NCBI GenBank assembly: GCA_963765495.1
Contig: CAVXWP010000008.1
Span: forward strand, 576,001 to 640,000
From: Blastocatellia bacterium
GTDB lineage: Bacteria > Acidobacteriota > Blastocatellia > UBA7656
DNA length: 64,000 bases
Direction: 5' to 3'
The position numbers and the translations under genes were made by a program. Position 1 is the first letter of the stretch. Every line of letters starts with the position of its first letter. The notes beneath the pieces were generated by a model, which saw only the letters and a program-made list of their open reading frames with translations, was not told where the DNA came from and did not search any database. Of the stretch, positions 1,541 to 19,887 are shown piece by piece.

Positions 1541-1596
1541 AGTGCAAAAGCTAACACTCTTCTCTTCCTTACGCGGCGATCTTAACGCGGTATTGG

Positions 1597-1679
1597 GCCT
1601 TACCGCTCATTCCAACGGACGCGCTCCAATGTTTCGTGTTCTATCAACTACAAGAGCACCGCTGAATGCGTAGGTAGGC
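1597..1679 (+). repeat. attC site, 85-bp family (degenerate cores)
   Basis: GCCTTAC-CGCTCATTCCAACGGACGCGC...GAGCACCGCTGAATGCGTA-GGTAGGC. Confidence 0.7.
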
Positions 1680-1879
1680 CCGAGCGATGCCCCCCAAAAC
1701 GCTGATGTTGAGAATTCAGAGCAAATTTGATTCTTTCAAGCAAATTGACCGAGATCAATGTATTATCTGGAATATCCTTCGTAGAATCATTCTTCTTAAG
1801 CTCAGATACTTAGGAGTTGCGCTCTTAGTGATCACCAGTTGTTTGAAAAACCTTTTCAATTCTAAGGAAGGAGAACACC

Positions 1880-2848
1880 ATGAACCGAATATCTTCCTGG
1901 GTAGTAGAAGTTCGCCTTGCATCAATTTTTCGAGGCTGCATCATTCTTGGTCTGGTCCTCAGTTCAGGCCTGGCCCGAGGTCAGTCATTGTCGTTCAACA
2001 ACCATGTTCATCTGACGAATGATTCGCCAGAACCTCAGAATGCCCCTATGCCGCATCTTTCTTCAGGGGCGCAAGAAGCGGCTAGAGAGATTGGAGTTGT
2101 TCAACTATTGGAACATCTCTATCGCCTGCCTGAGTCGCAACGTTGCGCAGGACCTTCAGCGACTCTGGAGGCGTTTATGTTGAGGCAAGAGATAACTGAA
2201 GCAGTGCTCGCTACATCGCTTGATGTAGACAGGGTCTCTGCTGAAATCGACGATGAAATAGCTCAGATCACCGCTATTCGCAATGACCTCAAATCACGCC
2301 GGGATCGCGCACTTAAAATCGACAATATTGCTGACATAATCACCAATGGTGGTATAGGTTTAATTGGTTCCTTTCTCGCGCTCAGGGAGAGCACAGCAAA
2401 GAGCGGCGACCTTGTTAGTGCCTTTGCTGGTGGGGCTTCGACCCTCCTCTCTATCATCGGTATTCGCAAGGAGCGCGGTGGGGAAACATCATTTGATGCC
2501 AGAACTAACATGCTTGCCAAACTCTTTGATCGCCCATTGAAGCGACACAGCGATTTTCCAGAAGGGGTCTGGAGTTATCTCAACACCCAGCCACCTTCTG
2601 AGCAAGGAAAGGGGGCGCGGATAGCAGAGTTGAAAACCGAATGGATCAAAGCCGATCTGATAGATAACACTCCCAAGGGTCAGAGAAAGATCGATCTGTT
2701 GACCGATAGTGGTAATCAGCCAGCCAAATTGTCGATAGATTTGCTAAAGGACCGTATAACAATGCTCGCAGACTTACGATCACAAATTTTCCTGATGAAG
2801 CACGATCTGAGCAAGCTTATACAGGGTATCAGGTGCCCTAGCGAGTGA
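1880..2848 (+). CDS. hypothetical exported helical protein
   Basis: 322-aa ORF, RBS AAGGAG, N-terminal hydrophobic segment, coiled coil and Gly-rich hydrophobic hairpin. Confidence 0.75.
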   Translation: MNRISSWVVEVRLASIFRGCIILGLVLSSGLARGQSLSFNNHVHLTNDSPEPQNAPMPHLSSGAQEAAREIGVVQLLEHLYRLPESQRCAGPSATLEAFMLRQEITEAVLATSLDVDRVSAEIDDEIAQITAIRNDLKSRRDRALKIDNIADIITNGGIGLIGSFLALRESTAKSGDLVSAFAGGASTLLSIIGIRKERGGETSFDARTNMLAKLFDRPLKRHSDFPEGVWSYLNTQPPSEQGKGARIAELKTEWIKADLIDNTPKGQRKIDLLTDSGNQPAKLSIDLLKDRITMLADLRSQIFLMKHDLSKLIQGIRCPSE

Positions 2849-3067
2849 GGGACTCCTGCAAATGATTGTATGCTTTTTAGGTCTTTAAGTGCAGTGGCGA
2901 TTCGATATCTAGCATTGATTTTCTCTGGTTACCAGGCTTTGATAAAAAGGCCATCTGGTCAATCGCAAACAAGTACAGCGGTAGATTGAAATGTCTTTGG
3001 CATATTTTTCATATGTTAGTGGTAGCTTTTTGATATCTACCTAAAATTCAAAAGGAGTCACATTATC

Positions 3068-3577
3068 ATGATCTCTAAAATGCAGTTACTAAACCAGTTG
3101 CACAGCCTACGTCATACGGGCTTCGCCACCAAACTTGAACAACACGCAACAACACACGGTTTCCCGACATCATTCTTCTTTGCGATTGCAAGTCGTGAAA
3201 CAAACTGTCTCAATATACTGGGGGATCCTCAGCACGGCGAATTTCACGGTGTAGGAATAATTCAAATTGATACTCAACATCCGATCGCACGTCAGGCGCG
3301 CGACAGCGGCTCTTGGCGGACCAATCCGGATCCACTTATTGAGTTTGGCGCCCGGTTGCTAGAGGACAATATCAAGCGGACAGCGGTGAGATTCCCTAAT
3401 CTCAATCAGCAGCAGCAATTAAAGATTGCCTCAAGCGGGTACAATTGTGGTATCACAAGTGCAATTGATGGCGCACTTCATGGAGACAGTGATCTTCATA
3501 CGACAGGACATAACTATGGTCGAGATGTCATCACGAGAATGACTATCTTTGAAGAACTGATCGCTGAGGAGAATTAG
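3068..3577 (+). CDS. goose-type lysozyme-like (GH23) peptidoglycan hydrolase
   Basis: IASRET, GD..HGVGIIQID, SGYNCG and DLHTTGHNYGRDV motifs. Confidence 0.75.
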   Translation: MISKMQLLNQLHSLRHTGFATKLEQHATTHGFPTSFFFAIASRETNCLNILGDPQHGEFHGVGIIQIDTQHPIARQARDSGSWRTNPDPLIEFGARLLEDNIKRTAVRFPNLNQQQQLKIASSGYNCGITSAIDGALHGDSDLHTTGHNYGRDVITRMTIFEELIAEEN

Positions 3578-3807
3578 GAGTAGACTTTATCAAAGTCAGC
3601 CTCGGGCTTCATTCACTTGCTTTGGACGTCATTTCTCAAGTTACGCCTCTCGTTATTCAGCACAGAGACCGGGCTCCTGCGAAAGATCAACTCAAGAAAC
3701 TCCCCGGGAGGCCTCGACTCTGTTCGTATTGTTCCAGATGAATGCTTGGTGCGAGGGCTTGCTTGTAATATCGACCACACCATCACAACCACTTGCCAAA
3801 GACCGAA

Positions 3808-3892
3808 GGCTAACCGCTCATTCCAGCGGACGCGCATTCCACTTCCAACTTATCCCTTAGCTACCGGCGCGTCGCTGAATTCGGAGTTAGGC
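3808..3892 (+). repeat. attC site, 85-bp family (intact)
   Basis: R'' GGCTAAC, L'' ATTCCAGC / L' GCTGAAT with one extra base, GACGCGC/GCGCGTC stem, R' GTTAGGC. Confidence 0.9.
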
Positions 3893-4063
3893 TACTCTGA
3901 GATGTGCTTCCGAATTTTAGACTTGTCATTTCATTCAATCTTATGAGCGTATTTGACATTTTGACAAACATAGCATAGAAAAGAACCTCACACGTAACTC
4001 ACTTTTTGACTTTGTAAAAATGAAGGTTTAAATTAGTCTGATATTTCTTCAGGAGAATCCATT

Positions 4064-4606
4064 ATGAACAAAATTGGCTCAAATTCTGACCTGGCTAAAT
4101 ACATGCATCGCCGGAACTTTCTAAAGACCGTAGTGTTGGGTGGAGGCGCCAGCCTCTTCTCATTTACCTGGGGCTCTAGTACTTCTCTAAGTGCCGGCCA
4201 AACTGACGCCCTGTTACTTTCCTGCATGGATTACCGGTTAGTTGATTACACGTTGCACTACATGGTTGGGCGAGGTCTAAGAGACAAATATGACCACGTG
4301 GTTCTAGCAGGAGCTTCCTTGGGAGCGATTACCGACAAGTACCCTGAATGGAACAAAACCTTCTGGGATCACCTCGGTCTAGCAATAAAGCTACACAGTA
4401 TACACAAAGTAATGGTTTTGGATCATCGAGACTGTGGTGCGTATAAACTCATTTTGGGGGAAGAATGCTGCAATAATCGGGAAAGAGAAACAAAAGCACA
4501 TAGGACGCAGCTTCAGAGTTTGGGGAAAAGTATAAGCAAGAAATATTCAGACCTTGAGGTAGAGTTACTATTAATGGATCTGAATGGAGTGGTAGAAAAA
4601 ATCTAA
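4064..4606 (+). CDS. beta-class carbonic anhydrase with Tat-like signal
   Basis: RRNFLK twin-Arg motif; zinc motifs CMDYR and HRDCG. Confidence 0.85.
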   Translation: MNKIGSNSDLAKYMHRRNFLKTVVLGGGASLFSFTWGSSTSLSAGQTDALLLSCMDYRLVDYTLHYMVGRGLRDKYDHVVLAGASLGAITDKYPEWNKTFWDHLGLAIKLHSIHKVMVLDHRDCGAYKLILGEECCNNRERETKAHRTQLQSLGKSISKKYSDLEVELLLMDLNGVVEKI

Positions 4607-4650
4607 AGAGAAGCACAATGTCAGCGGGGAGATCTTCAAGAGGTGACTTA

Positions 4651-4736
4651 GCCTTGCTGCTCATTCCCGCGGACGCGCATTCCAATGCTTCAGTTTCCCA
4701 TTACCTACAGCGGGCCGCTTTGTGCCTCAATTTGGC
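4651..4736 (+). repeat. eroded attC site, 85-bp family
   Basis: GCCTTGC-TGCTCATTCCCGCGGACGCGCATTCCA matches the left half of 3808-3892; right half decayed (ATTTGGC). Confidence 0.6.
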
Positions 4737-4896
4737 TCTCTCGGAAGTAGCCAAAACATTGGTTTGGTAACTACCATTCAAATCCATACTCCATGCTCGT
4801 TTTACCATCTTCAATTGAATCTAAAGTCTATTCCTCGTAAGCTTCCTCTTGCTTCCCTTTTCCTCTTCATTCTGAGTCAATCATTTTGGAGGTTTT

Positions 4897-5376
4897 ATGA
4901 ACGATCTTAATCAAGTTGCTCCTGCCTTCCTTGAAATGGCACATCGTATTGTCTGGTGCAGCGCGGCTACGGTGGATGCCAATGGTAGACCTCGCTCTCG
5001 CATCCTTCACCCGATCTGGCAGTGGGATGGCTCTTCACTCGTCGGCTGGGTAGCAACTTCTCCTACTCCTCTCAAACGTGCTCACCTCAGTTACAGTCCT
5101 TATATGTCGTTAAACTATTGGGCTTCCTCCCATGATACTTGTGTTGCTGAATGTCGAGCAACCTGGGCTTTCGACGAACAGACGCGCAGGATGGTATGGA
5201 ATCTCTTTTCCCACACCCCAGAGCCTGTGGGGTATGACCCGGCGATCATTCCTGGATGGGAGAACCCGACCTCGGAAACATTTGTTGCCCTGCGATTAGA
5301 GCCCTGGCGGCTGCGGGTGTTTCCCGGCAGTGTATTGATGGGACAAGGAGGAAATGTGCTAAGGTGGCAAGCCTAA
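4897..5376 (+). CDS. pyridoxamine 5'-phosphate oxidase-like (split-barrel flavin) protein
   Basis: ATVDANGRPRSRILHP and TPLKRAHL motifs; RBS GGAGG. Confidence 0.8.
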   Translation: MNDLNQVAPAFLEMAHRIVWCSAATVDANGRPRSRILHPIWQWDGSSLVGWVATSPTPLKRAHLSYSPYMSLNYWASSHDTCVAECRATWAFDEQTRRMVWNLFSHTPEPVGYDPAIIPGWENPTSETFVALRLEPWRLRVFPGSVLMGQGGNVLRWQA

Positions 5377-5507
5377 GAGCAATGCCCCAAATGCCCCACA
5401 AGCAAGTCCATTGGATTGATCTGTTGAACATAGCGCGAATACTTGGAAATTAAGCACAGTGACTCGCAGTGGAGGGGTTAACGAAGATCATAAAATGGAG
5501 ATTTATT

Positions 5508-6446
5508 ATGTACTATAATCGCCGCCGGTTTTTGACCAGCACGACAAGCCTTCTGTTTTCGACATCGATATTAGTTCCCCCCATCTTCCAGGAGAAAAAA
5601 GGAACGCGGCTTATCTTGCTTGGCACAAAGGGCGGGCCAACTGTTGGCGGTGAACTCCGTAAGAATCCCGCGACGCTGCTATTGATCAACGGCACGCCGT
5701 ACGTCGTTGACTGCGGATATGGCGTCTCGCGGCAACTCATCGCTGCTGGTGTGCCTCTTAACAAGCTGCGCTATATCTTTATTACCCATCATCACTCCGA
5801 TCATACCCTGGAGTATGGAACTCTAGTCTATAACGCGTGGGCTACGGATTTACCGTTCCGTGTGGAAGCCTTTGGGCCGCCTGGGTTGGAGGAGATGACG
5901 CAAACTTTCTTCAACTACATGAAATTTGACATTGATACTCGGATAACAGACGAGGGTAAACCCGACCTGCGCAAGTTTGTTTTAGCTCACGATTTCGATA
6001 GGCCCGGTGTAGTGATGCAAAACGATGATGTAAGGGTAAGCGCGGGTCTAGTACGACACCCGCCAATCAAACAATCTTATGCGTATAGGTTCGACGCTAA
6101 GGATCGTTCGGTGGTCATATCTGGTGATACAACCTATTCGCCGGAGCTTGCCGACTTCGCCAAAGATGCCGATGTGCTCGTACACGAAGTGATGTATTTG
6201 CCAGGTATCGAAAGTCTGATGAAGCGCGTGCCGAACGCGGCACAGTTGCGAGAGCATCTATTGGCGAGCCATAGCAGCCCTGAAGATGTCGGTAAGGTAG
6301 CTGCTCAGGCTAGGGTTAAGACGGTTGTGCTCTCTCACTTTGTTCCTGGTAATGATCCATCGATCACAGATGAGCAGTGGGCGAAAGGAGTACGTAAGCA
6401 TTTCAGAGGTCAAATCATCGTTGGCAAAGATTTGATGGAAATTTAG
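5508..6446 (+). CDS. MBL-fold hydrolase (RNase Z/arylsulfatase-like) with Tat-like signal
   Basis: RRRFL, LLGTKGGP, VDCG, THHHSDH, SGDT and DVLVHE motifs. Confidence 0.85.
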   Translation: MYYNRRRFLTSTTSLLFSTSILVPPIFQEKKGTRLILLGTKGGPTVGGELRKNPATLLLINGTPYVVDCGYGVSRQLIAAGVPLNKLRYIFITHHHSDHTLEYGTLVYNAWATDLPFRVEAFGPPGLEEMTQTFFNYMKFDIDTRITDEGKPDLRKFVLAHDFDRPGVVMQNDDVRVSAGLVRHPPIKQSYAYRFDAKDRSVVISGDTTYSPELADFAKDADVLVHEVMYLPGIESLMKRVPNAAQLREHLLASHSSPEDVGKVAAQARVKTVVLSHFVPGNDPSITDEQWAKGVRKHFRGQIIVGKDLMEI

Positions 6447-6509
6447 ATCAGGTCCCGTACCGTGAAGAAATACAATAAACGGATCAGGTATTAGCTGATC
6501 ACTATAGCG

Positions 6510-7205
6510 ATGAATAGATTGATTTTCAGTGAAGCTATTGATTCCAGCGCGCCAGTTGTCGGAAATCATGATTTAAGCCGTGTCCTAATTGTAGAAGGCA
6601 CTTCGGGTATTGGCAAATCAACCCTGATCGATCTGCTTGTGCGTCGTTTTATTGACGAAAGACCTGCTCGCAAACTCCGAACATTTTTGCACCTTACCCA
6701 AGCCCATACTTATGGTCCTTTGGCAGTAGATGAGGATCAAAATACTCTGACCAAAGATCAAAACCTCCGCCACCTTGATAATGTTGTTTCGATTCTCGAA
6801 TGGCATGTGTTAGCCCTTACAGCCGAAACAAAGGTAAAATTTTTTGCCGTTGTTGACACGCTCCACCTTACCCATTGCCACCGGCCGGGCCTACTAAATT
6901 GGGAAGACGTTTCGGGGCTTGATTCTCGATTGGCTAGTTTAGGCGCAAGACTTTTGTACCTACAGGCAAATTCACAAACTATATGGGAGCGAGGGATCAT
7001 TCCTCGCCGTGATCAAGAGTTCATATTGGGGTATGCGAATCCTAAATTTGGTAACACATTGGAAGAGATTCACCAATACTTCGTAGCTGAGCAGGAGCGG
7101 ATGCGACAACTTCTTTCAGGTACAAGTATGAAGTATCTTGAAATGGATGCAGATGTTGACCTGAGTTCGAGAGTAGAAGAGGCCTACGAGTTCTGGCAAT
7201 CTTAA
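6510..7205 (+). CDS. P-loop NTPase, nucleoside/nucleotide kinase-like
   Basis: Walker A VEGTSGIGKST. Confidence 0.7.
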   Translation: MNRLIFSEAIDSSAPVVGNHDLSRVLIVEGTSGIGKSTLIDLLVRRFIDERPARKLRTFLHLTQAHTYGPLAVDEDQNTLTKDQNLRHLDNVVSILEWHVLALTAETKVKFFAVVDTLHLTHCHRPGLLNWEDVSGLDSRLASLGARLLYLQANSQTIWERGIIPRRDQEFILGYANPKFGNTLEEIHQYFVAEQERMRQLLSGTSMKYLEMDADVDLSSRVEEAYEFWQS

Positions 7206-7457
7206 CAGGACCAAAGGAAGTTGGTCGCCGAGCAGACGGCACCGGCATTGCGACAGGGCCGGCTGAAGGCTATGAGGGGCTGCTTCTATATACCGCAAAC
7301 GGGTATGTATCTGTCTTGGTGCTCGTTCTGAGAGACCGAAACGGGATGGAGGGTAGCGCTAACCGCGAAGAACTACTTGCCTACCATCTCAAAACTCGAC
7401 TCGCCAGGCTTAAACCACTGTGAGGTTCCCGCTAAACATGATAATGTGATTCCTACA

Positions 7458-8195
7458 ATGTTTAAATATTTGCGGCACGTAAGATCTGTCTATTTTAGGT
7501 GCACCTGGGAGATCCGGGTTGTATCAAGTGTCGCGGCGTGCTTATGCGTGCTTGCGGTAGCGGGTACTCTCGCAAGTCTGTTCCCTTTACCCGTCTGCGC
7601 ACAGCAGACTGCACCATCGACACCGGTCGTGGTCCAACCTGGTGCGCCGGGGAAACCGACGCGGACTCTTCCCCCGACGACGAGAGCTAAACTCCCGCCA
7701 GCCTCCCCGGCAGATGTGCAGTTCATGCAAGGTATGATTATGCATCACGCTCAGGCAGTTGAGATGACCGCTCTGATCGAATCGCATACCGAGAACAAGA
7801 ACCTGAGGTCGCTAGGTGCGCGAATCAGCAGATCGCAGTCGGACGAGATAAAGTTTATGAAACGGTGGCTGGCTTCCCGTGGACAGCCAGTTTCACTGGC
7901 GATGCCTGACATGCCACACATGCATATGTCGCACGGGTCGATGATGCTTATGCCCGGGATGCTTACCACGGAGCAGATGGAAGCACTCAGGAAAGCAGGA
8001 GGCGAAGAGTTCGACCGTCTGTTTCTAACAGGCATGATTCAGCACCACGGAGGCGCTTTGACAATGGTGAAAGACTTGTTCAACACCGCGGGCGCAGGAC
8101 AGGACGCTGAATTGTTCAACTTCGCAACTGATGTGGATAGCGGACAGCGCGCCGAAATCCGAATCATGGAACGCATGCTAAAGAAAAACCCTTAG
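7458..8195 (+). CDS. DUF305-domain exported protein (start uncertain)
   Basis: ADVQFMQGMIMHHAQAVEM and FDRLFLTGMIQHHGGA repeats. Confidence 0.85.
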   Translation: MFKYLRHVRSVYFRCTWEIRVVSSVAACLCVLAVAGTLASLFPLPVCAQQTAPSTPVVVQPGAPGKPTRTLPPTTRAKLPPASPADVQFMQGMIMHHAQAVEMTALIESHTENKNLRSLGARISRSQSDEIKFMKRWLASRGQPVSLAMPDMPHMHMSHGSMMLMPGMLTTEQMEALRKAGGEEFDRLFLTGMIQHHGGALTMVKDLFNTAGAGQDAELFNFATDVDSGQRAEIRIMERMLKKNP

Positions 8196-8205
8196 AGGAT
8201 AAGCG

Positions 8206-10224
8206 ATGAATCGAATACATAAGATGGCCTTCCGTTTACTCGTAGCCTCCCTAGTTTTGTTCTGTTTTGTCGGCCAGATGCAGGCCCAAACGCCTTCGCC
8301 TCAGGAGTCATCGAAGCCGGCAGAAGCTAAACCCGATCAAAAGAAAGCAGAAGAAGATCCGTTTGCGCCTGAGCCTGCGCCACCGCTTCCCGCCGGAATG
8401 ACCGGCTCAGATACCAACGACCCGCGAGCCAAGCTGAAACCGGGATTATTCGACGCAGGAGAAGCATCGCTGGGCATGAAGCACCTCCTGCTCCTCAAAA
8501 AACCAGGTCCGTTTCAACTCGACTTTGATCCTGATAATCCAAGAGTTCAGAAGACCTTAGGTCTGCTCGGCGTTGCCGAGCCCGCGAAGATGCCCAAGTC
8601 GCTGCAATTGGTTATTGCTCAACTGGCGTTTGCAAACTCGGACCTCGCCTTCCAGGGACACTACCTGTTCCAGGGTAATTTTTATGGCGTCAATATCTAT
8701 GACATCTCCAATCCCGATAAAGCCCAGTTGTTGACTTCGATGATTTGTCCGGGTGGACAGGGGGATGTGTCGGTTTACAAGAATTTGATGTTTATGTCGG
8801 TCGAGCAGCCAAATGGCCGCCTCGATTGCGGCGCACAGGGATTTCCACCTGCACCTCCGCAGCCCCCCGGCCAGGAGAAAAAGCCAACTATCCCCGCACC
8901 GCAAAAAGACCGATTCCGCGGCGTGAGGATTTTCGATATATCCGACATTAGAAGCCCTAAGCAGGTAGCTGCAGTGCAAACTTGTCGCGGCTCGCACACG
9001 CATACGCTGGTCGTCGATCCGAAGGATAAGAACAACGTCTACATCTATGTATCGGGCACTTCGTTCGTGCGTCAAAATGAAGAGTTGGCCGGGTGCTCGG
9101 GTGAAGCACCGGATAAAGACCCGAACACGTCGCTGTTTCGCATTGATGTGATCAAAGTGCCGCTGGCTGCGCCGCAGGATGCACGAGTGGTGTCCAGTCC
9201 TCGTGTGTTTATCGACCCCCGTACAGGCGCAATCAACGGCTTGAACAACGGAGGCACCCACGGCAAAGACGGCGAGGAGAAGGCAACCGACACCAATCAG
9301 TGCCACGACATCACTGTCTATTCAGCGATTGGGTTGGCCGCGGGGGCCTGCTCCGGAAATGGAATCGTGCTGGACATAAAAGATCCCGTGCATCCAAAAC
9401 GTCTGGACGCCGTGAACGATCCGAACTACTCATATTGGCACTCGGCCTCGTTTTCGAACGATGGTAAGAAGATCGTGTTCACCGATGAGTGGGGAGGCGG
9501 ACTGGGCGCCCGTTGCCGCGCCAACGATCCTAACAAATGGGGCGCTGATGCGGTGTTTCATTTGAAGGACAACAAGCTGAGTTTCGCAAGTTACTACAAG
9601 TTGCCGGCAGCACAGGGCGACACCGAGAATTGTGTTGCACATAACGGTTCTCTCATTCCAGTTCCCGGCCGGGATATAGAAGTGCAAGCCTGGTACCAGG
9701 GTGGCATCTCTGTTATGGACTTTACCGACGCGGACCATCCGGTTGAAATTGCCTATTTCGATCGTGGGCCAATCGATCCACATATGCTCGTACTGGGAGG
9801 CGACTGGTCTGCCTACTGGTACAACGGCCACATCTATGCTTCAGAGATCGCTCGCGGGCTGGACATTTTTGACCTAACCCCAACTGAGTTTTTGACTCAG
9901 AATGAGATCGATGCTGCGAAAACGGTGCGAGTGGCCGAGTTCAACGTGCAGAACCAGCAAAGGATCGAGTGGCCGGCTCAGTTGGTTGTAGCCAAGGCAT
10001 ATCTGGATCAGTTGGAGCGATCACAGGCCCTGCCAGAGAAGCAAATCGCCGCCGTGCGGATGGAGATTCAAAGCGCAGAGAATTCAAATCTGGATCGACC
10101 AGCACTCGCAAAACTTCGGGGCTTGGCGCGATCGCTGAAAGAAAGCGCTGGAATGACCAAGAATACAGTAGACGCGAAGCGATTGCAGGCCCTGGCGGAA
10201 ATCCTACAGCGGCCCGCAAAGTGA
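8206..10224 (+). CDS. secreted LVIVD-repeat beta-propeller protein
   Basis: Signal peptide; repeated IYDISNP/IFDISD units; GSHTHT, CHDIT, DEWGGG and CVAHNG motifs; 10 bp downstream of the DUF305 gene. Confidence 0.85.
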   Translation: MNRIHKMAFRLLVASLVLFCFVGQMQAQTPSPQESSKPAEAKPDQKKAEEDPFAPEPAPPLPAGMTGSDTNDPRAKLKPGLFDAGEASLGMKHLLLLKKPGPFQLDFDPDNPRVQKTLGLLGVAEPAKMPKSLQLVIAQLAFANSDLAFQGHYLFQGNFYGVNIYDISNPDKAQLLTSMICPGGQGDVSVYKNLMFMSVEQPNGRLDCGAQGFPPAPPQPPGQEKKPTIPAPQKDRFRGVRIFDISDIRSPKQVAAVQTCRGSHTHTLVVDPKDKNNVYIYVSGTSFVRQNEELAGCSGEAPDKDPNTSLFRIDVIKVPLAAPQDARVVSSPRVFIDPRTGAINGLNNGGTHGKDGEEKATDTNQCHDITVYSAIGLAAGACSGNGIVLDIKDPVHPKRLDAVNDPNYSYWHSASFSNDGKKIVFTDEWGGGLGARCRANDPNKWGADAVFHLKDNKLSFASYYKLPAAQGDTENCVAHNGSLIPVPGRDIEVQAWYQGGISVMDFTDADHPVEIAYFDRGPIDPHMLVLGGDWSAYWYNGHIYASEIARGLDIFDLTPTEFLTQNEIDAAKTVRVAEFNVQNQQRIEWPAQLVVAKAYLDQLERSQALPEKQIAAVRMEIQSAENSNLDRPALAKLRGLARSLKESAGMTKNTVDAKRLQALAEILQRPAK

Positions 10225-10379
10225 GCCGCAGGCAGAAGATGCCGCATCAGGATGACTTCGTGGTGTTGCGCGCGTTCGGAGTCATCCTTAGATAAACCTG
10301 GGTGGCACTATGAGTAGCCAACAAAGCTGTCTTCTCCCACGAGTTTGCACCCTCCCAAATGATAATAGCTTGACTTCCT

Positions 10380-11262: not shown

Positions 11263-11263
11263 A

Positions 11264-11290
11264 GGCGCGACGCTGAATTCGGCGTTAGGC
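11264..11290 (+). repeat. attC right half
   Basis: GGCGCGACGCTGAATTCGGCGTTAGGC, near-identical to 3866-3892. Confidence 0.7.
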
Positions 11291-11377
11291 TCGCTGATTG
11301 CCATTTATTAACATCTGATTTACAGTATCGCTGTGATCGCAAATCGAAATAATTCCAATCAGTCACTATTTGATCTC

Positions 11378-11425
11378 TAATCCGCGCTAATCCGCCTGAT
11401 CCGAGTCATCCGCGGCCTATTTCAA
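11378..11425 (-). repeat. 48-bp dispersed CGGAT-period repeat, copy 1
   Basis: Reverse complement reads TTGAAATAGGCCGCGGATGACTCGGATCAGGCGGATTAGCGCGGATTA. Confidence 0.8.
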
Positions 11426-11457
11426 TTCACCGTGCATTCAATTTAACCTGGCAAAAC

Positions 11458-11555
11458 GCCTGACGCATGTTGCCCGCAATTCAAAAACTGAATGACCCTG
11501 AATCAACCTCTTGGTTGAAGGACATTTCGAAGCGCGCTCAACCGGGGGGTTAGAT
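11458..11555 (+). repeat. degenerate attC site
   Basis: GCCTGAC ... GTTAGAT; the R' is the exact complement of the next site's R'' ATCTAAC (12452). Confidence 0.5.
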
Positions 11556-11595
11556 GCGTCTGGAAAATATTGGATAGTTAAAATATGATTTTGAA

Positions 11596-12393
11596 ATGAC
11601 AACTATAGGAACTGTAGAAAGTTTATGGCGTTATCCGGTTAAAAGTATGCGCGGCCAGGAAATTCCCGAAGTTTTTATGGGATTTTCGGGAATCTATGGC
11701 GACCGATGCTACGCTTTCAAAAATTCTGCTGCTCGCAAAGGCTTTCCTTATTTGAACGCAAATGTGCAGCAACAAATGCTGCTTTATCGTCCGCAATTCC
11801 GTCACCCGGAACGAGCATCAAAACCGCCGAATTTGGCTGAAGCGGATAGCATCGCGCCCGGCGTCACTCCTGCAAATGGTGATGCGGAGGATATGGCATT
11901 AGACATTGTTACGCCCTCAGGTGAACTCATTTCCGTTGATGATCCAGCACTTATAAAACTACTTGGCGCAGGAATCAGCGAAAAGAATCAACTAACACTC
12001 GTGCGATCAGACCGAGCTTTAACTGATTGCCGTCCGGTTTCAGTAATCAGCGTGTCAACCGTTCGGCAGGTTGAATCGGAATTGGGTATGCCGATTGATA
12101 AGCGGCGTTTTCGGGCAAACATCTATTTCAATTTCGCGTCTGAGAGCGGCGGATTTGCCGAAGATAATTTTGTCGGTCGCCGTCTGCGTATCGGTTCAAA
12201 GGCGATAATAATGGTTCTTGAGCGTGACCCGCGCTGTAAGATGATTTCGCTCGACCCGGACACCGGTGAACACAACCCTGAAATTTTACGGATGGTCGCC
12301 CAAGCCCACGGTAATTTAGCCGGTGTTTACTGTGCTGTGTTGGTCGAAGGCATATTGAAAAAAGGGGACTTAATCGAACTGATCGCCGATTGA
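11596..12393 (+). CDS. MOSC-domain protein (gene cassette)
   Basis: LWRYPVKSMRG, GDRCYA, RRFRANI and RC motifs. Confidence 0.9.
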   Translation: MTTIGTVESLWRYPVKSMRGQEIPEVFMGFSGIYGDRCYAFKNSAARKGFPYLNANVQQQMLLYRPQFRHPERASKPPNLAEADSIAPGVTPANGDAEDMALDIVTPSGELISVDDPALIKLLGAGISEKNQLTLVRSDRALTDCRPVSVISVSTVRQVESELGMPIDKRRFRANIYFNFASESGGFAEDNFVGRRLRIGSKAIIMVLERDPRCKMISLDPDTGEHNPEILRMVAQAHGNLAGVYCAVLVEGILKKGDLIELIAD

Positions 12394-12451
12394 TTTTTCG
12401 ATTATCGTTTGTGGCTTTCTTTTGACAGTATTTGAATGTAAACAGAGGCAC

Positions 12452-12562
12452 ATCTAACAATTCATTCAACCCCACCGCCCTCAGATTGCCATTCATAAAC
12501 ATTCTTTGGGTTCATTCATGTTGCCGCTTGCGGCGGGCGGCGGGTTAATACGGGTGTTAGGC
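12452..12562 (+). repeat. attC site, 111 bp (different family, intact)
   Basis: ATCTAAC-AATTCATTCAACCCCACCGCCC...GGGCGGCGGGTTAATACGGGT-GTTAGGC. Confidence 0.9.
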
Positions 12563-12590
12563 ATCCAGGGTTCGCTACCGAGGTAGAGTA

Positions 12591-13076
12591 ATGGAAACAA
12601 AATGGCTCCCGGTATGGCCGAAGAAGAAATTGCTAATCATAGTGCCCATACTTCCCATACTGATCCTCACTGCGTTTCTTCTCTCAGGCCCTGTCCTTTT
12701 ACAGACTTACTTATTTGCTGATCTATTTGGCAACTTATCCGACCCTCCCCTGATAATTATGAGCCCTCTCAGGAATAAAGACCCCGAAATGATAGCCAAT
12801 TCTTTTCTTAACCAACTCCAGACCCTCGAACCATCAACTATACTCCGCTCTGTCATCAAGAATGATGCGGACTTTGAGCATATATGTCTTATGGAAAAAG
12901 AACATCGTTTGAAGACCTGGTCTGACTACACCCGCGAAGACAGAGGTGATGAAGTCGTTCTGACGTACTGGCCGCTTCGTGAGAGTTACCTTGATGGATT
13001 TGCCCCTCCCATTATTATCAAAGTGGGCAAAGTTGGGAATGATCTAAGAGTGATTTTCTACAATGCATTATATTGA
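12591..13076 (+). CDS. hypothetical membrane-anchored protein (canonical single-gene cassette)
   Basis: 161-aa ORF filling the space between two attC sites; RBS GAGG; N-terminal TM segment. Confidence 0.75.
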   Translation: METKWLPVWPKKKLLIIVPILPILILTAFLLSGPVLLQTYLFADLFGNLSDPPLIIMSPLRNKDPEMIANSFLNQLQTLEPSTILRSVIKNDADFEHICLMEKEHRLKTWSDYTREDRGDEVVLTYWPLRESYLDGFAPPIIIKVGKVGNDLRVIFYNALY

Positions 13077-13083
13077 AGAACCC

Positions 13084-13168
13084 TCCTAACCACTCATGCC
13101 AGCGGACGCGCTTTCCAACATTTCGTGTTCCACCAGTTCCCTGCGCGCAGATGAATCCGTCGTTAGGC
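13084..13168 (+). repeat. attC site, 85-bp family
   Basis: TCCTAAC-CACTCATGCCAGCGGACGCGC...GCGCGCAGATGAATCCGTC-GTTAGGC. Confidence 0.85.
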
Positions 13169-13500
13169 TTTCTTCCATTTGTGCCAAGGTTCTGGCTTAT
13201 TTACACTTGATCTGCATACTCAACATCAAGATAGCCTCTTCAATTCTCGATGGGTCTGCAATCTGCCTTCTTATAGTCAGATTGCCTCTGGCTTGACTAT
13301 ATAAGCGACCAGTCCTCCTACCTCCGCTCGCTCCGCCTGAGCCTTGACCTTTCCTTGCAGTGTCTCAAGTGTTGCTTTTGCTCGGCGACGGTCCATACAG
13401 TAATCAATATCCCTTTAATTCATGTGATTTTTCCTGATGACTGCAACCTATTGCTCACCTGTAGCACTGACTGGGTGGTTCATCTCATATAGGGGGAATT

Positions 13501-16107
13501 ATGGAGACTTTCTGGCAGGACCTGCGTTATGGCTTGAGGATTTTGCTAAAACAGAAAGGAGTAACGGCGACCGCCTTGCTCTCATTGGCGCTCGGCATTG
13601 GCGCAAACACGGCTCTCTTCAGCATAGTTGATGCGATGCTGTTGAAAACGCTCCCCGTTAAAGAACCGGAGCGGCTGGTGCTTTTCCGATCTGTCTCCCC
13701 ACACGAATTTAGTCCCGGCAGCTATGGTGGCTATTGGGACCTCGATCCGGCGACAGGGCAAAATGTTATGACATCCTTCCCTTACCAAAGCTACTCGCGG
13801 ATGCGCGAGCAGCAGAGCGTGCTGTCGGACCTCTTCGCTTTTGGAGATGTCAGTCTGAATGTGAACGCCGACGGGCAGGCCGACGTAGCCAAAGGGCAGG
13901 CTGTATCAGGCAACTATTACGCCGGGCTGGGTGTCTAGGCGATACTTGGCCGTACACTTACCGATGAAGATGATCGGGCAGGAGCCAGTCCTGTTGCCGT
14001 ACTCAGCTACCGTTACTGGCAAAGTCGCTTCGGCGGCGACGTTGCGGTAATAGGCAAACAGGTCAACTTGAACAATGTCGCCTTCACGATCATCGGAGTC
14101 ACGCCGCCGGGCTTTGAAGGAACAATGCAAGTCGGCTCGACCGAGGACGTAACGATCCCTATTGCATGGGAGCCGCAACTCTATGTAGACCCCAAAAGTT
14201 CGCGGATGTACGGTGCGGGCCAATGGTGGTTGCGACTGATGGGGAGATTGAAACCGGGAGCGACGCCCGAACAGGCAAAGGCCCAGTTGGAAAATGCGTT
14301 TCAACAATCCGTCATCGAGCATCGAGGCGCACGGCAGGCCCAGGCGCGAGCTTCAGGCGGGAATCCAATCAATGATTTAGACTCAAAGGATTATCCGAGC
14401 CTCTTTCTCGACCCCGGCGGGCGGGGCGAAATGAATGAGCGGCGGCATTACGCGCCATCGCTTTATCTATTGCTCGGCGTTGTCGCGCTGGTGCTGCTGA
14501 TTGCGTGTGCGAACGTGGCAAACCTTTTACTGTCACGGTCGGCGGCGCGACACAAAGAGATCGGCCTTCGGCTGGCACTTGGCGCGAGTCGCTGGCGGCT
14601 GGTTCGACAGATGTTGACGGAAAGCGTGCTACTGGCAAGTCTGGGCGGGGCAATCGGTATTGCCTTCGCGGTCTGGATCAAGGACGGATTGCTGGCTGTG
14701 AGTGATTGGGGCGGAAGAGGGATGAGCGCACTGGAGCCACAACTCGACTGGCGCGTGCTGGGGTTCACTATGGGGCTGTCGTTGTTGACGGGGATTATCT
14801 TTGGTCTCGTGCCAGCGTGGCGTCTAACAAATGTAGATTTAACTTTAGCGATCAAAGGGAGCGGACGAGTTTCGAGCCTGGCATCGCGTTCGTTGCTGAG
14901 TCGTGGGCTGGTAGTTTCACAAGTGGCGCTATCATTACTGCTTATGGTTGGCGCGGGGCTGTTTGTGCGGACACTGCTCAATCTGAAACGTGTGGACCCG
15001 GGCTTCAATACACACAATCTGCTGTTGTTCACCGTCCGGCCAGGATTGCTTGGCTACAAGGACGAAAGAGTGACGCAAATATTTGAGCAATTAGCCGAAC
15101 ACATCGAAGCACAGCCGGGCGTACAAAAGGTTACCTTTTCTGGTGTTCCATTACTTGCAAGGATTCAAAGCACACGTAGCGTCTATTTGCGTAACGCGCT
15201 GACTGCCGTGCCCGATGCAGAAGGGAAAATCAAACCAAGCGGGCAGTGCAAAATTAATCACTTGCGCGGAAATTTTCTGGAAGTGATGGATATTCCACTC
15301 CTAGCCGGACGTGCGCTGAACGCGCGCGACGACGCGAGTGCGCCAGAAGTAGTGATCGTCAACCAGACCTTCGCCAGCCAGTTTTTCCCCAATGAAAACC
15401 CCATTGGCAAACGCTTCACCTTCAATTCTAGTAAACCCGACGAATTCGAGATTGTTGGCCTCGCCAGGGATGCAAAATACACGAAGCAACGGGACGAGAT
15501 TTCCCCAACTGCTTATGTGCCGTGGCAGCAATGGCTAAGCGCAATGGAAGGTAAAGCAACTTTTGAGGTACGCACCGCAGGTGAGCCTACCAGCGTTATT
15601 ACAGCGATTCGCCAAGCCGTGCGCGAGGTAGATAGCGATCTGTCGCTTGCTGACGTTCGCACCCAGATCGAACAAGCCGATCAGACGCTGGCAATGGAAC
15701 GATTGTTAGCCAAGTTGATGACGTTGTTCGGGTTGCTCTCTCAGCAACTCGCTGCGATAGGGTTGTTCGGGATAATGGCGTATTCGGTTTCGCAACGCAC
15801 GCGCGAAATTGGGATTCGCATGGCAGTCGGGGCAAATCGCGGCGACGTATTAAAGATGGTTTTGCGGCAGGGGATGACACTTGCCTTTCTAGGCCTCGTG
15901 TTGGGGTTGACTTGTGCGTATGTGTTGACAAAGTATCTGGAAAGCTGGATGAATCTATCGCAGATGTTTTATGGTGTACCTCTTTTCGATCCGTTAACCT
16001 ATAGCCTGATTACCGTATTGCTTATGCTAGTGGCGATGCTGGCCTGTTTGATACCAGCATGGCGAGCAGCGAAAGTTGACCCTAATGTGGCGCTTCGCTA
16101 CGAGTAA
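13501..16107 (+). pseudogene. ADOP/MacB-FtsX duplicated ABC permease with a single in-frame amber stop
   Basis: [35 protein letters not shown] and QRTREIGIRMAVGA motifs; TAG at 13936-13938 in GLGV*AILGR, reading frame unchanged. Confidence 0.85.
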
Positions 16108-16187
16108 TACCAAATCTATTCAGAAGATGAGGTTTGACACTCGAATTCGTAAATTCATAAAGATTTTCAACATGCTGGTTAGAATAC

Positions 16188-16235
16188 TTGAAATAGGCCG
16201 GGACGGACGCGGATCAGACGGATTTTCGCGGATTA
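16188..16235 (+). repeat. 48-bp dispersed CGGAT-period repeat, copy 2
   Basis: TTGAAATAGGCCGGGACGGACGCGGATCAGACGGATTTTCGCGGATTA. Confidence 0.8.
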
Positions 16236-16367
16236 AACCTATCCAACCTGCAACGATAGATCGAAGCTGCCTATGTTGCGATCGACAATAGAGCAGATAC
16301 AGCGCAACAAACAATCCAGTTCGATTGTGTCCGATGGAGGGAATCCTGGTCCCGCCCAGAGCTATCC

Positions 16368-17081
16368 CTAGGCTCCGGCGAGTGTGACCCCTTGCGCATT
16401 TGCATGGGGTGAGTAATGCCGTTCCTTGAACCCCTTGGCCATCAGCCATAGTGCCACTGCCACGTGGATCGGAGCCAAAGGCATCGCCAACTCTGTCACA
16501 GTGTGATAACCCAAAAACCCCAGTAATGTGACCCCTATGAACTGAAGCAATATCCCAATCAGTCCAAGAACAGCCAATACACGCGGAATCAGAGCGAAGC
16601 GCCACAGCACCATGTAGAACAGAAAAATCCAACCGCCGAAGCCAAGCAGTTGCGAATAATGAGCCCACCGCCGTGTCACGGCGACCGCTGCTCCAAGGGC
16701 TTGGGAAAGCCCTGCATCCGAAGCGCCTGCCTTTGTGTACTCCTGGCTCACAGATAACATAGACATCACAGTGACGTTATGGACAGCGTCCAGCGTACAA
16801 CTGACCACGCACACAGCCAGAAACCAGAGCGCCATCGTCTCGCTGTACTGCTGAACGACCGGCCAGGCTGCAATGGCGATGCCGACTGTAAGCACGCCGC
16901 CAACGAACGAGAGAAACACAGCCGCGCGTATCTGAAAAGAACTCTCCGCCGCAGTTGAAAGGAAGGCAGGGGACCCCGTCATCAAGGGCCGCAGCAAGAC
17001 GAAGGGCAGCGTTAGTCCCGCAGCCAACTGTAACAACAACAAGATGCCGGTAGTTTGGCCGATTCTCTTGGCAGTTCTCAT
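16368..17081 (-). CDS. DUF4386-family membrane protein
   Basis: Multi-TM protein; LIPRVLAVLGLIG and LWLMAKGF motifs; RBS GGAGG. Confidence 0.8.
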   Translation of the reverse strand: MRTAKRIGQTTGILLLLQLAAGLTLPFVLLRPLMTGSPAFLSTAAESSFQIRAAVFLSFVGGVLTVGIAIAAWPVVQQYSETMALWFLAVCVVSCTLDAVHNVTVMSMLSVSQEYTKAGASDAGLSQALGAAVAVTRRWAHYSQLLGFGGWIFLFYMVLWRFALIPRVLAVLGLIGILLQFIGVTLLGFLGYHTVTELAMPLAPIHVAVALWLMAKGFKERHYSPHANAQGVTLAGA

Positions 17082-17486
17082 TCTTACCTCCTAAGAATGG
17101 CTAGTTGCCGGGATCGCACATGTGCCGGTTGAGCACTTAACTGTACGGAAGAGTGATCGGAAAGTTCAGCGAAGCTTTCTGGTGCAGCCTAAACCTTAGG
17201 CGATTCGTAGATAAACATTGCCCACTGCATAGCTTGTCATTACCCAAATTTATTCGTTTATGGGTGGTGAAGTTGCAACAGCTTTAATTGCCGCATTTGG
17301 AGCGATGTCAATCGAGAGCCAAATAGCTTGGGTTTTGAACCTGACCCATGCTAAATCCTTTAGATTCGCATCGAATTCTCCCAAGTGAAAAGATTTGGGT
17401 AATGACAAGGTTTGCCGAGATGCCTGGCAGGCCCGCTATAGTACTGAAAAACAATCCCATTCAGTCTTATTTGACAAGGATTGACC

Positions 17487-17572
17487 GCCTGACTGCTCAT
17501 TTTAGCGGACCTTACATGCCAACGATTCAATATCCCGCTGCTACTAGGGCGTCGCTGAATTCGTCGTTTGAC
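17487..17572 (+). repeat. attC site, 85-bp family (partly degenerate)
   Basis: GCCTGAC-TGCTCATTTTAGCGGAC...GGGCGTCGCTGAATTCGTC-GTTTGAC. Confidence 0.75.
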
Positions 17573-17710
17573 GCCTGTGACACTCGCCGTCTTCAAGTTT
17601 TCATTTGCAGGGTTATGCGCTTTCGAACGTAGAGGAACTCTCACCCTACACAGCGTCCACGAAAGTGATCAATGCAGGCCATTCCATTCCTGGCCGTAAC
17701 CGTCTTAGGC

Positions 17711-18949
17711 TCAATCTTCCATATCCGCTAAGCGACAAATGAATCCCCATCCACCGCCGAGTTCGCTCACCGCCAACATCAGTTCATTGCTCCCCTTCTT
17801 CAACTGGAGGTAGACAGCATCGTTCTCCGGGTTAACGATGCCAAGGAACCCGGGGTCGCGAAAGTTCTGGGCGCTTCGGCCACGGTAGAGAATCTTGCCA
17901 TTCAGGAACACGCTGACGTCGTCGCTATAACCGATGTAGAGCTTTTTCACCTGGTCCCGGTCGGAATCAATTATGGTCCGGGCATAGATGGCTTTCATCC
18001 CCGGCTGGGGTTCCAATCGCTTCGAAAAGTCGTTTGCAAATGAGACTCTCAGGTGCGGGGCCTCACGATATCGATATATGACCACAAAGCCGGGCGGTTC
18101 TGCCTCCACCTCCTGCCAACTTCTTACATCGCTATCGGAGGGTGGGAGCGGACGTTCAAGATTACACGCGAGCCCATCGTATGAGGGGGATAAGGTCCAC
18201 TTAACCAGGGTGCCCGGAGGTATCGGCGGCAGGTGTCGCGACCAGGGCGCATCGGGCGTCGTCCGTATTTCGAAATTCGAGAAATAGGTTGCTCCCGTCA
18301 GGACCGTCATGGCCACCTGACCTTTCTGAACACCGCTTTTCAGATCATTCATTACAAGCACGGGCTTATCCATCTTCTCTACATAGAACCTTGCCTGCGC
18401 CCCCACCACCTCCAGACGCAGGTGGAACCAGACATCTTTGGGGATATCGACCGCGCCGGTGAAGCCTGGCCCATTATAGATTTGCCAGTTAAGGCCGGTG
18501 TTGAGAACCGGCGTATACTGTATGGCATCGGGAAGCCCGGATTTGTGCTGGCGGAGATAGATCCATTCCGAGTTGGCGCCGTCATTGGCGATCCGAAACT
18601 GAATGCCGAAGAACCCGCGGATTGCAGGGGTCGCGACATCCACATCGACAACGCCGTCTCGCATTTCAAAGTCCTTCAAAACCGCCGCTCCACCATCGAT
18701 CAACAAGCATTTTCGTCCTCGATATTCAGCTGCCTTCGCTTGTCCTTCTAGATCCCAGCGCTGGGAATCTGCGGGAACGGAGAGCGTCTGAGGCGTCTGG
18801 GAATGGGCAATAGACTCAGACAGCACCCTGGGCGTCGCTGAAGAGGTCTTTAGAGCGACAGAAAAATTGAGACCTATCAGCGCCACAACCAACCACGCTC
18901 TGACCGAAGCAGAACCCAATAGGCAAAGTGCTTTACTTCGCGTCATCAT
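17711..18949 (-). CDS. exported hypothetical protein with a concanavalin-like domain and a C-terminal beta-sandwich
   Basis: WFHLRLEVVG, GYSDDVSVFLNGK and LKKGSNEL...GGGWGF motifs; start uncertain. Confidence 0.7.
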   Translation of the reverse strand: MMTRSKALCLLGSASVRAWLVVALIGLNFSVALKTSSATPRVLSESIAHSQTPQTLSVPADSQRWDLEGQAKAAEYRGRKCLLIDGGAAVLKDFEMRDGVVDVDVATPAIRGFFGIQFRIANDGANSEWIYLRQHKSGLPDAIQYTPVLNTGLNWQIYNGPGFTGAVDIPKDVWFHLRLEVVGAQARFYVEKMDKPVLVMNDLKSGVQKGQVAMTVLTGATYFSNFEIRTTPDAPWSRHLPPIPPGTLVKWTLSPSYDGLACNLERPLPPSDSDVRSWQEVEAEPPGFVVIYRYREAPHLRVSFANDFSKRLEPQPGMKAIYARTIIDSDRDQVKKLYIGYSDDVSVFLNGKILYRGRSAQNFRDPGFLGIVNPENDAVYLQLKKGSNELMLAVSELGGGWGFICRLADMED

Positions 18950-19335
18950 TTCAAATTTATATCCTTCCGTTGAGAATCGAGAGAGAACAAGATAACCACA
19001 ACCAACACTTGCAAATTTTGTTTTCAAAACGACAATGGCGCAAGCCAACGATACCACATTTGGAGCCACTCATCGGCGTTGAAACATAATGTATTCCTTT
19101 GATCGAAAACACCGTTTTGTGACTAAACGGCCCGATGTTGTGACGAACCGGAGGCTTCCTTGATAGCGGGACATGATATATGGGTATGTATGGAAAGCAA
19201 TTCAGGTTTTTCTGTAGGTTGCTCATCTCAATTGAATTCCAATCCAATTGATCGTAGAATCCCTTCTCTTTTGGGACGGTATTTCTCAAATTGGCTGAAG
19301 TGTTATTCGCAGTCTTCATATAGTGAGGTATCACG

Positions 19336-19746
19336 ATGAATAACAGGAAGAAAGATTTGAAAGAACAGTATAAACTAACACCCACATCCATGGGCATCTA
19401 CCAAATTCGCAACCTCACAAATGGCAGAATTTTCGTTGGGGCCGCCCTTAATCTACCCGGTATTCTCACCAGCAATAAGCTTCAATTAAGATCGGGAAAC
19501 CACCCGAATAAGAGGCTCCAAGCCGAGTGGAATGAATTCGGCAGCGAATGCTTTGCATTTGAAGTACTGGATGAACTGACAGCAACACAAGGAGCGGGCC
19601 ATGACTACCGAGGAGATCTAGCCTTCTTAGAGGAGTTATGGCTGGAAAAATTGCAGCCTTACAGTGATCGGGGTTATAACGAAAAGAGGAGAGGCCGAGA
19701 AGAGAGGCTGAGAGAGATGGCGCAAAGGAGGTTGGGTAAACAATGA
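19336..19746 (+). CDS. GIY-YIG-family nuclease-like protein
   Basis: MGIYQIRNLTNGRIFVG and HPNKRLQAEWNEFG motifs. Confidence 0.85.
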   Translation: MNNRKKDLKEQYKLTPTSMGIYQIRNLTNGRIFVGAALNLPGILTSNKLQLRSGNHPNKRLQAEWNEFGSECFAFEVLDELTATQGAGHDYRGDLAFLEELWLEKLQPYSDRGYNEKRRGREERLREMAQRRLGKQ

Positions 19747-19786
19747 GAAGCATTTCACAGGTTGCGTAATGTGTCGCGCAAACCGA

Positions 19787-19887
19787 GTCTGGTTGCTCAG
19801 TCCAACCGACGCGCATGCCAGATTCTCGTGTTCCATCTATTGAAACGCATAGGGGGCCGCAGCACGCCACTGAATCCGGCATTTCTC
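19787..19887 (+). repeat. eroded attC site related to the 85-bp family
   Basis: TGCTCAGTCCAACCGACGCGCATGCCA...TCGTGTTCCA...CACTGAATCCGGC; core boxes lost. Confidence 0.55.

Follow-up and report, generated by a model that had tools for sequence, protein, structure and literature searches.

A 64,000-nucleotide stretch of a Blastocatellia chromosome (contig CAVXWP010000008.1, positions 576,001–640,000; hereafter the window, whose coordinates are used throughout) very probably carries, at 857–19885, an eroding integron cassette array that is most likely unattended by a nearby active integrase. An integron cassette consists of an open reading frame (ORF) followed by an attC site, the outer boxes of which read 5'-RYYYAAC (R'') and 5'-GTTRRRY (R') on the top strand and are mutually complementary; the bottom strand of attC forms a hairpin in which a central spacer that stays unpaired separates the R box from the L box, the latter carrying extrahelical bases, with a variable loop at the end, and this hairpin is recognised by the integrase IntI, which cuts at a conserved triplet, so that cassettes are excised as circles and re-inserted (Nivina 2016). 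On sequence grounds the sites described below are attC sites, and their recombination is a prediction.

Rfam searches at gathering thresholds returned no match in the window or in six related loci from other genomes, and because Rfam holds no attC family we built two stand-in covariance models. The first, R1, was made from 16 of the 17 attC sites in two other genomes, on contigs of a Rhodanobacteraceae metagenome-assembled genome (MAG; locus L006) and a Pyrinomonadaceae MAG (locus L004), and contains no window sequence; the second, R2, was made solely from 13 attC sites of four class 1 integron loci linked to intI1. The sites and remnants in the array, with their scores under both models, are as follows.

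1597–1680, forward strand: attC of the ~85-bp family with eroded R boxes (R'' GCCTTAC, R' GGTAGGC; R1 25.4 bits, E 6.3e-5; R2 15.0 bits, E 0.14)
3808–3892, forward: best-preserved family attC (R'' GGCTAAC, R' GTTAGGC; R1 48.2 bits, E 6.5e-12; R2 42.4 bits, E 7.9e-10)
4651–4734, forward: decayed family copy, 5' arm retained with 1 mismatch (R'' GCCTTGC, R' ATTTGGC; aligned by MAFFT and profile; no R1 or R2 match at E ≤ 10)
10380–10398, forward: 3' half-site, L'-R' only, 5' arm gone (R' GTTAGGC; 1 mismatch to the 3'-arm pattern; nhmmer profile positions 67–85, E 1.3)
11264–11291, forward: 3' half-site with ~28 nt of 3' arm (R' GTTAGGC; 0 mismatches; nhmmer profile positions 56–85, E 0.0021)
12452–12562, forward: intact attC of a second family, 111 bp (R'' ATCTAAC, R' GTTAGGC; R1 32.0 bits, E 5.8e-7; R2 39.7 bits, E 5.4e-9)
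13084–13168, forward: family attC with weakened L stem (R'' TCCTAAC, R' GTTAGGC; R1 27.3 bits, E 1.7e-5; R2 19.7 bits, E 0.0053)
17487–17573, forward: family attC with eroded boxes (R'' GCCTGAC, R' GTTTGAC; R1 27.5 bits, E 1.4e-5; R2 20.5 bits, E 0.0032)
19787–19885, forward: most decayed family copy, 16-nt loop insertion (R'' GTCTGGT, R' ATTTCTC; 5' arm with 3 mismatches; aligned by MAFFT and profile; no R1 or R2 match)

The ~85-bp family, identified by reading the sequence and with a repeat finder, comprises the six full and two 3' half-copies listed, all on the forward strand and all within 1597–19885, with no copy in the other 44 kb of the window. Its 5'-arm 19-mer, with up to three mismatches allowed, matched five times, on the forward strand only (1606, 3817, 4660, 13093 and 19796; 0.00 expected in shuffles, none of 100 shuffles reaching five), and its 3'-arm pattern matched six times, again only on that strand (1661, 3874, 10380, 11272, 13150 and 17554; 0.23 expected, none of 100 reaching six). 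MAFFT aligned the six full copies over ~85 nt together with the two 3' halves, and the family profile, run over the window with nhmmer, found no further copy: the best other row, 18821–18842 (E 0.38), lies inside a reversed ORF (17711–19069) and was taken as chance, and the remainder had E ≥ 3. The repeats that an earlier note had read from the sequence are thus present where it placed them, far above chance, and share one orientation, 3' of mostly co-oriented ORFs; the consensus that it quoted stands apart from details, in that site 3808 begins GGCTAAC and not GCCTAAC. Its count of about ten attC sites stands for the five matched by an external attC model (1597, 3808, 12452, 13084 and 17487), while two others are decayed family copies (4651 and 19787), two are only 3' halves (10380 and 11264) and one, at 11458, fell away.

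A strict RYYYAAC...GTTRRRY scan gave five candidates per strand, only 12452 and 11441 being inside the array; it is too strict for eroded sites. Scanning generically for AAC...GTT plus arm pairing was non-discriminating (68 candidates on each strand) and revealed no convincing extra site in 4.7–10.4 kb or 19.9–24 kb.

The covariance models carry the identification as attC. R1 matched five sites in the window at E ≤ 6.3e-5 (25–48 bits), all on the forward strand. It returned 17 rows altogether; the 12 beyond these five had E ≥ 0.95, two of them being the reverse strands of true sites. R2 matched four of the ten sites listed in the earlier note at E ≤ 0.0053 and a fifth, 1597, at E 0.14, with nothing further below E 4.5. 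The sites at 3808–3892 and 12452–12562, for which that note had suggested a covariance-model check, were matched by both models, here surrogates for the IntegronFinder model. In the folded bottom strand of 3808–3892, a 5x5 internal loop separates the 5-bp R stem from an L stem whose R''-L'' arm bears two single-base bulges, with a ~31-nt loop beyond, and under R1 this site scores 48 bits forward versus 11 bits reverse; bulges on that arm and strand asymmetry are both described for attC (Nivina 2016) and therefore support the assignment. The proposed R''/L''/L'/R' anatomy with extra unpaired bases accordingly holds for this best site. Over 37 sites from all sources, in an alignment that was itself fitted to the model, 87% of cells were paired versus 18–43% with partners slid, and double-sided changes occurred at 12 of 18 pairs, values that none of 500 shuffles reached.

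Alternatively, these sequences could be ordinary repetitive extragenic palindromic (REP) or bacterial interspersed mosaic element (BIME) repeats, miniature inverted-repeat transposable elements (MITEs) or terminator hairpins that resemble attC by chance. Like REP/BIME or MITE repeats, they are short imperfect palindromes, here with 7-bp inverted ends, that follow genes in intergenic DNA; hairpins bearing the same arms occur singly outside arrays in other genomes; and another, unrelated intergenic repeat is present in the window. We regard this explanation as largely refuted and very improbable because all eight of eight copies are on one strand and clustered within 18 kb, with none in the other 44 kb of the window; because models from integrase-linked attC of other genomes match them with strand asymmetry; because their ends follow the RYYYAAC/GTTRRRY rule; and because the related sites of L004 and L006 are organised as cassette arrays, that of L006 beside the start of an intI gene. 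Both ends conform strictly only at 12452; at 3808 and 13084 R' is perfect and R'' departs from the rule once; and mutated triplets break the rule at 1597, 4651, 17487 and 19787, of which 17487 retains the GTT of R' and the other three have lost both conserved triplets.

Two sites, at 11458 and 12452, had been attributed to other attC families, and only the second of these attributions stands (R1, R2 and strict ends). The candidate at 11441/11458–11566 was rejected: neither model matched it at E ≤ 10 on either strand, and although 11441–11566 has strict RYYYAAC...GTTRRRY ends, the arms beside its candidate R boxes are unpaired. Its imperfect 112-nt hairpin (11455–11566) folds at −20.8 kcal/mol (z −3.5), and 11441–11566 lies beside 11399–11425, one copy of a ~50-nt repeat that is unrelated.

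The related loci came from a degenerate site pattern run over a genome collection, which returned 11 loci, six of them true relatives and five (L001, L002, L008, L009 and L010) apparent chance matches in GC-rich DNA with no R1 match at the pattern position. L006 holds 13 co-oriented 58–69-bp sites within 7 kb, and an ORF start at the locus edge (7782–8000, forward strand), divergent from the array, is 55% identical to IntI1 residues 15–87 (E 5e-18); judged from these sequence features, L006 is a complete chromosomal integron of canonical layout whose intI-like gene is cut by the locus end. L004 holds four sites, each directly 3' of a co-oriented ORF, the fourth of which (2600–2712) was detected by R1 afterwards and lies outside the training sites. 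The remaining four relatives are solitary hairpins, one per MAG (Rhodanobacteraceae or Gammaproteobacteria): L003 1834–1908 (+), L005 3793–3871 (−), L007 2664–2742 (−) and L011 3875–3947 (−). They have attC-family L arms without R''/R' boxes, give local R1 matches of 29–33 bits at model positions 10–57 (13–54 in L011) and are all situated, with conserved flanks, in a conserved rpsB/tsf – map – glnD neighbourhood; they may represent an orphaned or exapted attC arm.

Searched against plasmids with blastn, the L006 site type matched 33 plasmid records; the 3808 site had no match there at E ≤ 1. Six of the 33 plasmid loci were inspected, and in four the match is directly 3' of a cassette gene, with a divergent intI1 annotated upstream; in these class 1 loci, four in number, R1 detects 13 sites, all at cassette ends and on the cassette strand. 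Global pairwise identity between window and class 1 sites is inflated by the difference in length and was not used as evidence. In class 1 loci R1 also detects attC sites beyond intervening genes: a group II intron reverse transcriptase lies between cassette gene and attC in L014 (1237–2592), as does an IS110-family transposase in L017 (3884–4927). On the Desulfohalobium retbaense plasmid pDRET01 (L015), an attC at 5999–6056 (R1 56 bits) lies just before an opposite-strand 'site-specific integrase' gene (6096–6752), and the C-terminal part of this short integrase is 37% identical to IntI1.

No integrase was found in the window. The Pfam tyrosine recombinase family Phage_integrase matched none of the 64 ORF translations scanned window-wide, no intI or recognisable remnant was detected there (the best IntI1 tblastn match had E 1.8), and the window contains nothing of the kind that defines a complete integron, namely an intI that includes the IntI-specific domain, an attI next to it and, upstream of the array, a Pc promoter. 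Since an attC cluster is present and no integrase was found with it, the array is, within the 64-kb window, a cluster of attC sites lacking integron-integrase (CALIN), defined by Cury et al. 2016 (PMC4889954) as two or more attC sites without a neighbouring intI; the earlier note had classed it in this way, and had also expected attI and intI to the left. Cassette orientation does place any attI and intI on that side, a layout shared by L006 and the four class 1 loci.

That orientation is one reason to consider that the array could be the distal end of a complete, active sedentary chromosomal integron, with intI, attI and younger, uniform cassettes just to the left and the IS630 element at the left edge merely inserted, in which case IntI would go on cutting out and rearranging the cassettes that lie between intact sites. 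Three sites are structurally intact, the array comes within 850 bases of the window edge, and Cury et al. 2016 (PMC4889954) report insertion sequence (IS) elements in a quarter of complete integrons and note that rearrangements can split arrays. We nevertheless consider a complete and active integron possible but rather unlikely, because the site closest to the presumed integrase, 1597, lacks both conserved triplets, because the copies are far more diverged than those of the integrase-adjacent L006 array (58% versus 78% identity), and because the window contains no intI fragment.

Alternatively, an integrase present transiently or encoded at another locus might have inserted cassettes singly into secondary sites of the chromosome, so that the locus never had an attI/intI platform. 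Such insertion is listed among the origins of CALINs (Cury et al. 2016, PMC4889954), a preprint reports efficient cassette insertion outside att sites, and neither attI nor intI is visible in the window. We find this improbable, since at least eight related, co-oriented sites in order find a simpler explanation in an array assembled at a single attI, and since the half-sites, with 19–28 nt of 3' arm, would require deletions in an existing array anyway.

The reading that we favour, an eroding array without a nearby active integrase, draws on the state of the sites. The six full copies have a mean pairwise identity of 58% (46–72, 15 pairs) versus 78% among the 13 L006 sites, and both triplets and paired arms are kept at three sites only, 3808, 12452 and 13084; because of this divergence and because only these three sites look competent, the array appears to be unmaintained and becoming chromosomally fixed. 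Half-sites and an in-frame stop in a permease gene of the ADOP family are further signs of erosion. The half-sites retain a stretch of 3' arm that a G/TT crossover could not produce, which argues for deletions, and the erosion or deletion of sites would thus have fused neighbouring cassettes into 8.7-kb and ~4.3-kb blocks. Decay does not, however, follow the gradient proposed in the earlier note: in order from 1597 to 19787, R1 gives 25, 48, none, half, half, 32, 27, 27.5 and none (bits), so that site quality is patchy, with no steady fall along the array. The related argument, that a homogeneous attC family marks a sedentary integron, is weaker than claimed because, although one family dominates, a mean identity of 58% makes it only moderately homogeneous. 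Sedentary integrons were recognised by Cury et al. 2016 (PMC4889954) by their presence in all genomes of a species or by more than 19 attC sites; with nine sites or remnants, and full copies as diverged as these, the array does not have many highly similar attC sites.

We propose that cassettes were once stockpiled at this locus as ORF + attC units, the attC sites of which would have eroded through point loss of triplets, weakening of the L stem and deletion of whole arms. Most likely, no active integrase nearby would still be homogenising or replenishing the array; the integrase could have been lost, or separated from it by the IS630 element or by another rearrangement. Only units bounded by competent sites would be mobilisable, in trans, by an IntI encoded elsewhere, and the remainder would be frozen into the chromosome. 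The clearest such unit, 12557–13162, is a predicted excisable cassette whose crossover position follows from the G/TT rule for R'; its ORF, 12591–13076, is the sole cassette that has one gene and, on either side, a site with both R boxes retained.

Several observations weigh against this reading. The absence of intI is an absence from this window only, which starts 1.6 kb to the left of the first site, and the array itself begins 850 bases from the edge. R1 and R2 are substitutes of our own making for the IntegronFinder model, their E-values are calibrated only roughly, the training sites of R2 were chosen via R1, and under this class 1 model strong scores were obtained for just two of the ten listed sites. 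Single-site folding energies are ordinary compared with shuffles (z −0.5 to −1.3 for family copies), and because solitary, box-less hairpins occur near rpsB/map/glnD, arm sequence alone is no proof of integron context. Two 'cassettes' are, moreover, unusually large and multi-gene, and two ORFs are reversed.

The genes in and beside the array are as follows.

1–850, reverse strand: IS630-family transposase fragment, N-terminal helix-turn-helix part, cut by the left window end (ORF 275–844; Pfam HTH_32, E 4.9e-12)
857–1411, forward: cassette ORF, PpoB2/DUF2182 copper-chaperone family (Pfam PF09948, E 4.4e-30)
1880–2848 and 3068–3577, forward: two ORFs not separated by an attC (unmatched in Pfam, NCBIfam and PADLOC)
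4064–4606, forward: cassette ORF, putative carbonic anhydrase, Pro_CA_2 (Pfam PF20393, E 1.2e-9)
4897–10224, forward: five co-oriented ORFs, in order unassigned, MBL-fold hydrolase, unassigned, DUF305/CopM-like and a 672-amino-acid choice-of-anchor-B-like protein (Pfam, NCBIfam)
10477–11262, forward: cassette ORF, DUF4386 (Pfam PF14329, E 2.1e-50), its stop codon abutting half-site 11264
11596–12393, forward: cassette ORF, MOSC-domain protein (Pfam PF03473, E 4.9e-17)
12591–13076, forward: 161-amino-acid ORF between attC 12452 and 13084 (no family match in Pfam, NCBIfam or PADLOC)
13501–16107, forward: ADOP-family duplicated permease gene (NCBIfam TIGR03434), in-frame TAG at 13936–13938
16368–17081, reverse: reversed ORF, DUF4386 (Pfam PF14329, E 3.5e-20)
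17711–19069, reverse: reversed 452-amino-acid ORF (no family match in Pfam, NCBIfam or PADLOC)
19336–19746, forward: 136-amino-acid ORF, weakly homing-endonuclease-like (NCBIfam TIGR01453, E 4.6e-7, below cut-off; PADLOC HEase, E 1.2e-7)

All ORFs of 857–13076 are on the forward strand, and a site or remnant lies 7–230 nt 3' of eight of them; from 13.2 to 19.9 kb the pattern is looser, with the interrupted ADOP permease and the two reversed ORFs. The five-ORF block at 4897–10224 has no internal R1 or R2 match at E < 3 and may consist of fused cassettes or be a non-cassette insert. The two ADOP pieces share one frame (13501–13938, TIGR03434 positions 1–124; 14068–16107, positions 169–803, 696 bits), and on account of the single in-frame TAG the gene is probably a pseudogene. 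The IS630 element noted earlier at the left edge is confirmed by both Pfam and NCBIfam, the latter matching its IS630 family transposase at E 5.3e-12 over positions 2–111 of the 299-position profile, which falls short of the curated cut-off since the gene is incomplete here; two ORFs in 1–216 have no Pfam match. PADLOC, run on 15 ORFs of the array, detected no defence system beyond the weak homing-endonuclease-like match at 19336–19746.

Like the CALINs of Cury et al. 2016 (PMC4889954) and of the Néron et al. 2022 preprint, which propose that such clusters are degraded or split integrons, the array contains two or more attC sites with no neighbouring intI, an IS at its edge and cassettes mostly of unknown, non-resistance function. 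It differs from a typical CALIN call in that model-supported sites are up to 8.6 kb apart and several are too decayed to call, and the published 4-kb clustering would probably split it into two small CALINs (1597 + 3808 and 12452 + 13084) and a lone 17487. According to the same preprint, RefSeq holds 2961 CALINs versus 2760 complete integrons, the two being about equally frequent. The array is an expected, ordinary kind of element. It also resembles the eroded chromosomal integrons of Xanthomonas (Gillings 2005, as summarised in bioRxiv 10.1101/2025.06.18.660453), which are co-oriented, with one dominant attC family, and show signs of integrase-activity loss, array stabilisation and gradual cassette loss, but here the host is a Blastocatellia and no intI remnant is visible in the window. 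CALINs and eroded chromosomal integrons are already well described, and the Blastocatellia array is a further example. As far as the retrieved texts go, the literature linking integron, Blastocatellia and attC is limited to soil beta-lactamase and resistome work, in which one paper names Blastocatellia solely as a beta-lactamase host. What the locus adds is the documentation of a partly fossilised array of cassettes in an acidobacterial class that has been poorly sampled; in this array the stages of attC death (triplet loss, L-stem weakening, arm deletion and the fusion of cassettes into fixed chromosomal genes) are displayed side by side.

The arms of the window sites connect the array to a wider group. 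Ghaly et al. 2021 (PMC8352920) describe a 'Xanthomonadales-like' attC type common to many class 1 resistance cassettes (aadA, aadB, smr/qac), and the R and L arms of the window family align both with the Rhodanobacteraceae array L006 and with plasmid attC sites after smr, aadA1/2, aadB, cmlA and blaOXA-732; the putative link to this clade is drawn from that arm similarity. Unlike the Xanthomonadales-like type, the family in the window combines a long loop with a 3' spacer that is shorter by one base, and window attC sites are longer (85–111 bp versus 58–69 bp in L006) and more diverged. Ghaly et al. 2021 also provide a separate Acidobacteria attC model, chromosomal Acidobacteria attC having already been modelled, and this model may fit the window family better. 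In the same study, 99.4% of Xanthomonadales-like attC among complete chromosomes were from Xanthomonadales, two non-Xanthomonadales genomes carried such sites, and whether the grouping is ecological or taxonomic was left open. Both the window array and the Pyrinomonadaceae locus L004 share attC arms with Xanthomonadales chromosomal integrons and with class 1 cassettes of the aadA/aadB/smr type, a similarity that bears on the origin of mobile cassettes. The shared arms could reflect a shared integrase specificity and cassette pool, a speculative and rather doubtful proposal; if it were true, soil Acidobacteriota would be part of the reservoir that supplies cassettes to mobile integrons, and the 'Xanthomonadales-like' clade would be an ecological and not a taxonomic grouping.

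The host is, from the relationships of its proteins, a member of the Acidobacteriota, class Blastocatellia, in agreement with the Acidobacteriota-like host suggested earlier: among 120 matches listed for FabF, the organism-named relatives at 81–87% identity are all Blastocatellia, and the ADOP permease is present alongside. From ~24 kb rightward the window carries housekeeping genes, including SelB, FabF, a Clp ATPase and PBP1, and the flanking core genes begin with an M48 peptidase (24336); no tRNA genes were found in the window. Between the array and these core genes, 22290–24116 (45–48% GC) holds two small reversed unassigned ORFs and, at 22896–24116, a type II N4/N6 DNA methyltransferase (PADLOC MTase_II, E 1.9e-165), found outside the array among five ORFs scanned rightward; this segment may be a restriction-modification remnant or another island. 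The second repeat of the window, ~50 nt long, has no Rfam match and occurs at 11399–11425 (−), 16168–16233 (+) and 32979–33044 (+). It has a conserved TTGAAATAGGCC head followed by reiterated CGCGGAT/CGGAT units, and two of its copies lie between convergent gene ends.

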